A DNA stretch of 63,997 nt, filler included, from Rhabdomonas costata (taxonomy: Eukaryota), in NCBI GenBank assembly GCA_019059605.1. It is 39 parts of 39 records of this genome, joined end to end, with 100 filler letters (N's around TTAATTAATTAA, not from the genome) between each part and the next. Parts side by side here need not be neighbours in the genome. Positions count along the whole stretch, not along the records: positions 16,438 to 17,981 come from JAHMHO010013365.1; 38 more parts are not named here. The stretch is one strand, 5' to 3'. This document shows positions 15,367 through 18,334 of the stretch, piece after piece (position 1 is the first letter of the stretch; every line of letters begins with the position of its first letter). The notes under the pieces were generated by a model. The model was not told the DNA's origin. It was given only the letters and a program-made list of their open reading frames with translations, and did no database searches. Position numbers and translations under genes: made by a program.

Positions 15367-16337
15367 CGGCACCGCGCGCACAAAGCCTCCCTCGAGGGCT
15401 TCTGCCCATGGCAGGCCGTGCACAGGTGCGCGGCGCAGTACCACTTCCCCCCCGTGGGAATGCAGAAGCACTTCCCACTGTTGTGGGCGCACCGAGTCTG
15501 AGGGGGAAAAGAACCTCAATGGTGGTAAAGGGAGGTGGTCAAACCAGGGGAGAGAACGTAGTGAACAACCAAGACCTGACCAAAAGAACCGCGATTACGA
15601 GTAAAGATAAGGTGTTCGTTAGAGGGGGCGGACGCCTGGTACCGCTAAAAGTTTGCTCAATGGGCATTGTCGCCAGCCTTCTTTGAGCTCGTTATCGGGT
15701 AAAGATCAAGTCTCTCAGGAGTTTTTCTGGCAGAGAGCGCCCCACTCACTCGTCGGAAAAATATAATGAGCCAACCAACGCCAGCATTTGATAAAGGAAA
15801 ACACAGACTATTGCAGAAAAAGAGCACCAAACCCCCACTTTCGCAGCGATAGGCGAGCGATGAGGAACCACGCCGAATCCACACTCATGACAAGCGGCAA
15901 CGTTGTCAGAAAAATTACGCAGGGGGCAGGGATTCTCGCGAAACCTGAGCCAGCACGTCCTGCAACCGTGTCAGCTGCATCAGGAAGTTCGGGTTGGGGT
16001 TGGCGCACGGCCGCGCCTTGCGCACCTTCGCAAGAGCTTGCGCCAAACTCATCCGCTCAGTCATCATGAGGTACCCGATGACGATGCTGGCGGAGCGGCT
16101 GATCCCGGCCATGCAGTGCACCAAAACTACCCCGTCCTGGGACAGCGCGTGCTGGATGAACCGCAGCGGCCTCTGAAACTCGATGTGCTGAGTGTCGTCA
16201 TCGTTGAGGCTGCAGTTGTGATAAGTCAGGGACTCGGGGAAGAAGTTGGGCAGATCCTTTGCGGCGTTGACGACGTGGGTCACCCCAAGAGACTTCAGAA
16301 GGCTCCGCGAGGATGCCGCATCCACGCTTCCCAGGTA
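15367..16337 (-). CDS. Dual-specificity protein phosphatase with probable Cys/His-rich downstream exon (partial)
   Basis: Exon 16337-15945 carries LGS..AA, GVTHVVN, the catalytic VHCMAGISRS, IGYLM and R....PNPNF..QL. A phase-0 GT-AG intron (15944-15498) links it to exon 15497-15367. The phosphatase domain is secure; the splice is inferred. Confidence 0.93.
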
Positions 16338-16442
16338 NNNNNNNNNNNNNNNNNNNNNNNNNNNNNNNNNNNNNNNNNNNNTTAATTAATTAANNNNNNN
16401 NNNNNNNNNNNNNNNNNNNNNNNNNNNNNNNNNNNNNTGTGT

Positions 16443-16610
16443 TGGTCGTTCTTGGCGTTCTTGGTGTGCTTTACTTCGGGTGGCTTTACGGGTTTGGTGT
16501 TGTCTTCTGCTTCTTTGGACCTCATTCTGCATGATACTTAGTTTGTTGTTGCTCACTTTCATACGGTGCTTTCGTTGGGGGCTGTGTTTGGATTGTTTGT
16601 AGCGTTATGG
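16443..16610 (+). pseudogene. cox1: Mitochondrial cytochrome c oxidase subunit I fragment (helices IX-X) with in-frame TAG; NUMT, mtDNA fragment or chimera
   Basis: Manual translation: [55 protein letters not shown], matching the COX1 signature FTxGGxTGxxLxxxxLDxxLHDTYxVVAHFHxVLSxGAVF. The TAG is at 16539-16541. Confidence 0.92.
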
Positions 16611-18334
16611 GGTATGCCTGGGTAGGGGGGTCGCCCGGGGTCTTCCCCACTGTTTCTCTGCTGGCCTTCCCTCTCTCACCTGGCCCTGCTCTGCTCTGCT
16701 CTGCCCGCCTTCCCGCCCAGCTGGTTGATATGTAGCCTGACTCATGGCCTTGCCAGGATCTGGCACACGAGGGGCTGATCATCAACTTCTGTCTCAGCTG
16801 ACCAAAAGGGCTCTCTGAAAACCTCTGAAAAGGTTTGTCCAACGCATGAGAGTTTTCTCCTCTGTCTCTGGATGTGGAACACTTGGGTGATCTGGACCGT
16901 GACAAACACTCTCCTACGGGTCCGGAGCCAAACCAGCAGCCTGACAAGCGTTTGGCCAAGAGCTGGGGCGCGAGTGGCTGAGATCGGTCTTCGCCCACCT
17001 TGGAGGCTCCCGGGAATCGCTAGGAAACTTTTTTGGGGACTAGGGACGGAAAATCCTTAGATGTCCTGGCTATATTCTCTGGAAGGAGGAAAACCTTGGT
17101 GAACGGCAGCCTTGGTTTTTGTTTTAATATCTTTGGCCACCCATATGACAAGTTAGCGTTTATGGACCAGAGCAGGGATTGGGTGGCCGGGGAGCCCTTT
17201 CCTCGACAAGGTTGGTTTGTAAGAATCAAGGTCCGAAAGCACCGGGTTATTGGCCAGACCGTTTTTGTTTTGACGGACGCGTGGAAGTCAGAAAAAGGAA
17301 GGGAAAAAATCCCAAAGCTTGGCGGTGGTCGCGTCCATCGCGGCAGCCGGGCGCGATCCCAAAAGGAAATATCACCTTCACTTCGAACCAGTCATGCGAG
17401 TGATGGAAAAGCTCTCTTGCTTGCGAAAGGGATCAAAAAAGGGGGAAGAAACTCCCACCAACGCGGTGAAAAATAAAGTCGAGGCGATCGTGGCTATAGC
17501 GAAAACAACACCTTTCATTTCTGGTTCACGAACTGGAGTTACGGTACTCAAAGAGTGCACGCAAATGACAAAACATAGGGAATTGCATTCCAATTTCAAA
17601 AATCTGAAACGAAATGGTGGTTAGATTAGTGTGAAGGTCTAGCATAAGCAAGCGGAGCCATACTTGAGTACCAATTTTGTCAGGGCTTGCTGATTCAGCA
17701 CAGCACGTCAAAGAACGAACATCGCAGGTCCACAGCGGCCCGACATTTGTAAACCACTGACCCTCCGCGCCTACGAACTGGGGGACTGAAAGCAGACGAT
17801 TTATTATTGGGCCAGTGTGTGATGCTAGTCCATTTGTGCAATTTGCAATTTGGAATGCACACCTGACAGGATGCGAGGATCTCGCGAAGAGGCGGCCTTT
17901 GGGACAGCATTCGTTCACAGCCTCTCACACAAACCCTCGCATGAAACTGTGACCAAAGCAAAGGCACGATGGGGGCAACCANNNNNNNNNNNNNNNNNNN
18001 NNNNNNNNNNNNNNNNNNNNNNNNNTTAATTAATTAANNNNNNNNNNNNNNNNNNNNNNNNNNNNNNNNNNNNNNNNNNNNTGTGTTGTGGGGAAATATA
18101 CCTTGTAGCTGGTAGCTGGTAGTTTGTAAGGTTAAAACACCTCCTTTGCACTACACTTCAGAAACTCTCAATTTTACGATGGCGCGGACAATTTATGGCT
18201 TGCCTGTTTTTTTTTCATGCCTGCTGAATAGTTGTGATTGCTCAATTCCTCATTTCGTGTCATTGTTTGGGCATTGCTTTCGATCGCCTACCACTGTGTG
18301 GAGGTTCTCGGAGGGTGGGTCGGTTCCGATATAG

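Follow-up and report, generated by a model that had tools for sequence, protein, structure and literature searches.

The TAG codon at positions 16539-16541, which interrupts a cox1 fragment, would with high confidence be an ordinary sense codon inherited from a functional cox1 gene, the alignments indicating a mitochondrial code in which UAG is read as tyrosine beside UAU and UAC. The case for the code is made from DNA alignments. UAG=Tyr is already known in a euglenid mitochondrion, being in print for Rhabdomonas costata (PMC8219788). The cox1 copy in the window (the whole stretch of DNA analysed, 63,997 nucleotides) is not a working gene. Given the code, the chances are somewhat better than even that this copy is a young NUMT, and both layers taken jointly, the code and the young NUMT, come out slightly on the probable side.

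The cox1 fragment and its affinity

The window is composed of contigs of about 1.5 kb strung together, with N-spacers between them. One such artificial spacer (N44, TTAATTAATTAA, N44) occupies positions 16338-16437, and contig C13365 (assembly G000; 1544 nt; window 16438-17981) begins right behind it, its first 186 nt constituting the cox1 piece. Since the contig begins inside the piece, the 5' side of the piece is cut off. The contig on the other side of the spacer carries a dual-specificity phosphatase exon (15915-16337, minus strand) with a TAA end, which gave one match (62%) at a strict cut-off.

The euglenid mitochondrial cox1 fragment spans 16443-16623 on the plus strand, covers the heme-ligand region (HDT-Y, HFH) and is 97% identical to the clean copy C72867. 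The earlier note had placed the end of the similarity at 16610; the match to the organism's own cox1 in fact continues through GMPG to 16623, four codons further. The reading frame at 16440-16622 encodes a COX1 peptide with a single TAG, at 16539-16541 (plus strand), on the tyrosine of the HDTY motif, this TAG being very probably a Tyr codon in this mitochondrial code. The presence of a cox1 fragment with an in-frame TAG at this tyrosine, as first noticed, was confirmed by Pfam (PF00115, E=1.7e-13, 50.7 bits for a cut-off of 34.8, with HDT and HFH present) and by a PDB search, in which Euglena COX1 (8iuf) was the top match of the peptide (E=3.3e-19). The HDTY column holds Tyr in 28/29 euglenid-like proteins and in 82/83 other COX1 proteins. 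The threonine of the HFHT motif (16554-16565, plus strand), previously taken as unusual, is the euglenid state: Thr follows HFH in all 29 euglenid-like proteins and in Euglena, whereas 82 of the 83 remaining COX1 proteins have Tyr there.

The piece is also distinct in composition, as had been remarked. Its G+T content is 0.76 (the maximum across 287 N-free 186-nt bins of the window is 0.73) versus 0.50 in the flank on the same contig, and cox1-derived DNA has about 0.72. The peptide is 91% identical to the database protein P0001. In a COX1 tree (FastTree, 38 sequences, one half-gene, N-terminal), the N-half encoded by contig C54965, with TAG masked, was sister to P0001 with a support of 0.995; together they fell within a euglenid clade holding Dinema validum P0008 and E. 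gracilis P0018, with bacteria, fungi and animals apart. A metagenome scan with a euglenid COX1 alignment yielded no close relative among the matches listed (80 loci, 40-47% identity), and a degenerate pattern specific to euglenids had no matching stretch in either viral_contigs or genome_contigs. Compared with their nearest relatives, the COX1 sequences of loci L031 and L002 have about 5 residues deleted before RDVFG and about 2 before YVWS, deletions common to most of the copies shown.

TAG and TGA in the mitochondrial genes

Searching G000 with the cox1 piece returned 32 DNA matches at 73-100% identity, and 44 of the 46 COX1 HMM matches in this assembly contained an in-frame TAG. Of the two cleanest cox1 contigs, one has 254 open codons, 9 of them TAG, and the other 214, 4 of them TAG; neither contains TAA or TGA. 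All 13 of these TAG fall on Tyr in the relatives P0124 and P0129, an outcome with a chance probability of about 3e-17 at a Tyr frequency of about 5%. Under the same 13 codons, P0001 has Tyr at 12 positions and E. gracilis at 11; the figure falls to 10 for P0002 and 9 for P0008, and these two alignments count against the code. The invariant Tyr of HPEVY, the cross-linked catalytic residue of COX1, is encoded by TAG in 15/20 cells and is Tyr in 29/29 euglenid-like and 83/83 other references. TAT and TAC are still used for Tyr alongside TAG. Between copies, TAY-to-TAG swaps affected 6/45 cells versus 15/1325 for non-synonymous Y-to-G changes, the cells not being independent; the reverse TAG-to-TAY swaps, likewise in non-independent cells, were not above the non-synonymous control (7/151 versus 16/371, p=0.82).

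The codon at 16539-16541 is itself TAG in 22 of the 25 cox1 copies that cover it, a result that bears on the first option of the earlier note, a NUMT with one nonsense change. The idea of one nonsense mutation, or an error in base calling, within a NUMT of an organism that uses ordinary Tyr codons has one point in its favour, the location of the fragment at a contig edge. Against it stand these 22 copies and 12 more cox1 Tyr sites that use TAG, and the systematic use of TAG at Tyr across cox1 copies refutes it, leaving it practically no probability; the NUMT part of the option probably holds.

Tabulating TAG at Tyr columns, as had been proposed, extended the pattern beyond the 13 sites of cox1. 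In cob, once alignments below 55% identity were dropped, 4 of 10 Tyr columns have TAG as their majority codon, and TAG does not occur in any non-Tyr column. In cox2, two of three TAG lie on a Euglena Tyr and one on Leu. A mitochondrial-type atp6, with E=4e-13 to Euglena subunit a, was found on contig C14811 (locus L178, frame ending at 1331; also L183); three of its six TAG fall on Tyr, one on Phe and two at the alignment edge. The earlier note would have returned to an ordinary NUMT or an error had no other TAG occurred at conserved Tyr positions; as such codons were found, the code stands. Its second option is right in what it says of the code, with UAG as a sense codon used systematically for Tyr in mitochondrial genes. 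The piece is not a diplonemid-like module, since the gene is continuous in other contigs. Modules of the diplonemid type are genes present only as short separate pieces with fixed ends, whereas here we observe the frames of 254 and 214 codons, and breaks at varied places. Two contigs with complex I membrane subunits, C65586 (L078) and C39239 (L079), have a GC content of 0.60 and 0.35, respectively, and no TAG; they look like bacterial and other-eukaryote contamination.

With regard to UGA, no conserved Trp column of cox1 or cob has TGA as its majority codon. The clean cox1 contigs contain 9 TGG and 0 TGA, and TGG is the majority codon in 7 of 8 cob Trp columns, the eighth being one edge cell; TGA occurs in 1 cell. 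The only steady in-frame TGA is the cob codon after YCPSAE (L047 and other cob loci), present in 6/7 copies and corresponding to Gly in the relative. UGA=Trp is therefore best treated as unproven for this mitochondrion on the alignments at hand.

RNA editing that turned every TAG into UAU or UAC would leave the code unchanged, and other Euglenozoa do edit heavily (PMC4700960). It would have to convert G to a pyrimidine at at least 13 cox1 sites and in cob, cox2 and atp6, solely within TAG codons, and Soukal et al. (2021; PMC8219788), who describe UAG in R. costata where cox1, cox2, cob and nad4 have Tyr positions, saw no indication of editing in these genes. We consider editing very improbable and retain the reading of UAG as tyrosine. 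The R. costata report also leaves no support for regarding the code as new to the group. As here, it concerns a euglenid whose cox1, cox2 and cob have UAG in Tyr columns, with continuous intronless genes in a very fragmented assembly. It differs in assuming UGA=Trp, whereas the conserved Trp columns here use TGG, and in listing seven genes, atp6, found here on C14811, not being among these. Its available text is silent on stray copies, on any 3' cassette common to several genes and on absent stops, and its six text supplements, so far as available, make no mention of stop codons, UAG, the genetic code or Figure S3.

The precedents for UAG=Tyr cited in PMC8219788, the mitochondria of some labyrinthulids and of the sponge Clathrina clathrus, show the same stop-to-Tyr reassignment; as these lineages are unrelated to euglenids, we infer an independent origin. 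According to the available text, C. clathrus also has CGN=Gly. Euglena gracilis provides the closest solved COX1, COB, COX2 and subunit a to the proteins described here and shares their HFHT. It uses table 4 (as stated in PMC8219788), whereas the present genes use TAG for most Tyr and, unlike those of E. gracilis, are G+T-rich at about 50% GC.

The mitochondrial DNA of E. gracilis has no tRNA genes (PMC4700960). Euglenid mitochondria being, on this example, devoid of known tRNA genes, an imported tRNA-Tyr must presumably read UAG; it would do so through a changed or modified anticodon, and the mitochondrial release factor would no longer stop at UAG. Unusual tyrosyl-tRNA synthetases of R. costata have been tentatively tied to the code shift (PMC8219788). 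ARAGORN reported 0 tRNAs in the window, and a tRNA-Tyr-like pattern gave 0 matches in G000 (a weak search of an incomplete assembly); neither result is informative on the tRNA that decodes UAG. The mitochondrial coding strand is strongly G+T-rich and A-poor (A 8-10%), which could favour a G-ending Tyr codon.

Origin of the window copy

Compared with C72867, the window copy differs at 5 of 181 bases, all synonymous (0 non-synonymous), and has no indel. Three of the five differing bases are private among the fetched copies, indicating that the window copy was not copied from any fetched allele. Its 3' end forms a junction (16616-16630, plus strand, delimited by eye) made of the 6-nt word GCCTGG, common to cox1 and the adjoining repeat and in register, two more cox1 bases, and 7 nt matching neither; the word is found at the cox1 end and in the upstream part of the repeat. 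Beyond the junction, 16631-16904 is an internal piece of a dispersed repeat, entered mid-way and of strand-balanced composition, with 244 candidates in G000, of which 40 were scored (other copies at 80-89% identity). That this repeat is a solo LTR was ruled out, as other copies extend beyond both ends. A piece of a lower-copy repeat follows at 16938-17102 (7 other contigs match within it, 73-86%), and 17416-17981 is a non-coding-looking stretch that is 93% identical to C66362 and overlaps C78794 exactly over its last 127 nt. When compared with 118 other loci that had been retrieved in searches for mitochondrial genes or for the cassette, the flank gave 0 matches.

The window copy thus joins mitochondrial sequence to non-mitochondrial DNA. 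NUMTs consist of a short mitochondrial piece in balanced, repeat-bearing DNA and show graded decay among copies. The window copy resembles them in its flank and in the gradation of the copies but is itself without neutral decay, a state that fits a young insertion only. In such an event, microhomology-mediated end joining would be the probable means by which the 181-nt cox1 fragment was linked into the middle of a dispersed, non-mitochondrial type of repeat. Among cox1 copies (alignments under 30 codons dropped), those at 95% identity or above (16 alignments) total 76 synonymous and 15 non-synonymous changes with 4 indels, and those below 85% (18 alignments) 282 and 298 with 75 indels, a graded decay that looks like repeated escape of mitochondrial DNA. 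The synonymous excess among copies L001-L046 stays near 8-14% of synonymous sites as decay rises (hand estimate); this flatness suggests several coexisting functional cox1 alleles, not a simple clock. Several observations count against a NUMT: all 5 changes are synonymous (p=0.001 for the 26% expected), the contig stops inside the cox1 piece, and the flank has no linked nuclear gene.

Some of the same observations would be accounted for if, under the same code, the contig were an amplification or assembly chimera in which a minor mitochondrial cox1 allele was template-switched onto a nuclear repeat at the 6-nt word. The cox1 piece is without decay, the microhomology is in register, the contig ends within the piece and has no exactly matching neighbour there, and fold-back inversions make up 5 of the 45 cox1 loci, evidence that this assembly contains artefactual joins. 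A clean template switch would not, however, give the 7 junction bases that match neither partner; the best other copy of the flank reaches only 89% identity, and amplification does not make the many older copies with indels and non-synonymous decay. We regard the chimera as unlikely, though it keeps an appreciable share of the probability.

It could also be supposed, again under the same code, that the piece is a short gene fragment scattered within mitochondrial DNA. The mitochondrial contigs of E. gracilis bear short fragments of all genes, scattered in a manner comparable to the stray cox1 copies here (PMC4700960), and every change in the window copy is synonymous. Mitochondrial-type flanks are nevertheless G+T-rich and A-poor (G+T 0.64-0.73 in L016, L017 and L046), against the balanced 0.50 here, and the flank has nothing in common with the 118 other mitochondrial-gene or cassette loci. 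This origin is improbable, and the young NUMT remains the reading we favour.

Gene ends and related proteins

A cassette of about 40 nt is shared by the 3' ends of cox1, cox2, nad4, nad1 and atp6 (L177-L199, L013, L016, L017, L029, L070-L075, L212). Its 25-nt core occurs 42 times in G000 at no more than 1 mismatch and 0 times when read backwards. Thirty cassette matches were examined: 11 lie behind cox1, 9 behind cox2, 3 behind nad4, 3 behind nad1, 2 behind atp6 and one behind an unassigned frame; for two of the 30, the DNA upstream was too short for clustering. None of the 8 cob 3' loci examined carried the cassette. Pfam identified neither the atp6 nor the nad1 tail; a PDB search identified the former, not the latter. 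At the opposite end of the genes, a 5' motif is common to the upstream region of cox1 (L035, L044, L046) and the vicinity of the cox2 start (L073, L074).

In the cleanest copies, no in-frame TAA is present ahead of or within the cassette, and in cox1 an in-frame TAT of the cassette lies about where P0001 and P0002 end (by eye). The DNA downstream of the cassette is swapped between genes. It should be noted, against over-reading these ends, that TAA is rare on the coding strand, with 0 in any frame of 1408 nt. Unlike the other genes, nad1 meets the cassette in frame +1, and no single cut site yields UAA in both frames. A cassette always in one frame is ruled out by nad1, and the probability that four of the five would share a frame by chance is about 0.14 (calculated by hand). 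The shared cassette without in-frame TAA raises the prospect that stops may be made after transcription. Stop-less mitochondrial transcripts occur in dinoflagellates, and stops made by tailing occur in diplonemids and animals.

The proteins of relatives were considered in the same respect. Among 132 short database proteins, 20 matched a full-length euglenid-type protein at 75% identity or more, and 3 of these were dropped because it was not possible to locate their end within the reference. Nine of the remaining 17 end just before a conserved Tyr (P0121-P0123, P0125, P0126, P0141, P0143, P0153, P0186), 5 before Cys (P0128, P0138, P0140, P0145, P0148, mostly of the P0002 group) and 3 elsewhere; rough binomial p values are 1e-8 for Tyr and 1e-4 for Cys, for proteins that are related and some of which possibly stop at contig ends. 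P0001, P0124 and P0129 are full length. These truncations hint that other organisms share UAG=Tyr while using TAY at other sites, and in the P0002 group Cys may be the meaning of a stop-like codon, perhaps UGA. Fused frames are also seen: P0129 holds COX1 and COB in one frame of 1127 aa, and P0004 COX1 and COX2 in 819 aa. E. gracilis has a single open frame that contains atp6, atp8 and nad1 (PMC6930080).

A joint reading of these observations can be offered as a tentative one, which we think possible but hold to be clearly short of probable. Gene ends would have no genome-encoded stops, UAG would be Tyr, UGA would be a rare sense codon, maybe not Trp (the relatives hint at Cys), and UAA would not end frames. 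The cassette would be a 3' processing site, at which cleavage and A-tailing create UAA or release is stop-independent, and it would also serve recombination, given that genes exchange the sequence downstream of it. Within the clade, UAG would mean Tyr in other organisms, and UGA would mean Cys in a sister group. The literature searched, which covered few subscription papers, contained no account for euglenids of a shared cassette or of proteins ending before Tyr or Cys.

Taken together, these results describe a code change that is real and rare, yet in print for a euglenid, and a window copy that is a non-functional scrap. Any translation of euglenid mitochondrial genes has to treat TAG as Tyr, and barcoding can be led astray by stray copies of cox1. 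If the truncated proteins are confirmed to reflect code changes, one clade would be reassigning UAG, and perhaps UGA, in different ways; if translation is confirmed to end without DNA-encoded stops, the loss of stop codons would become directly testable.
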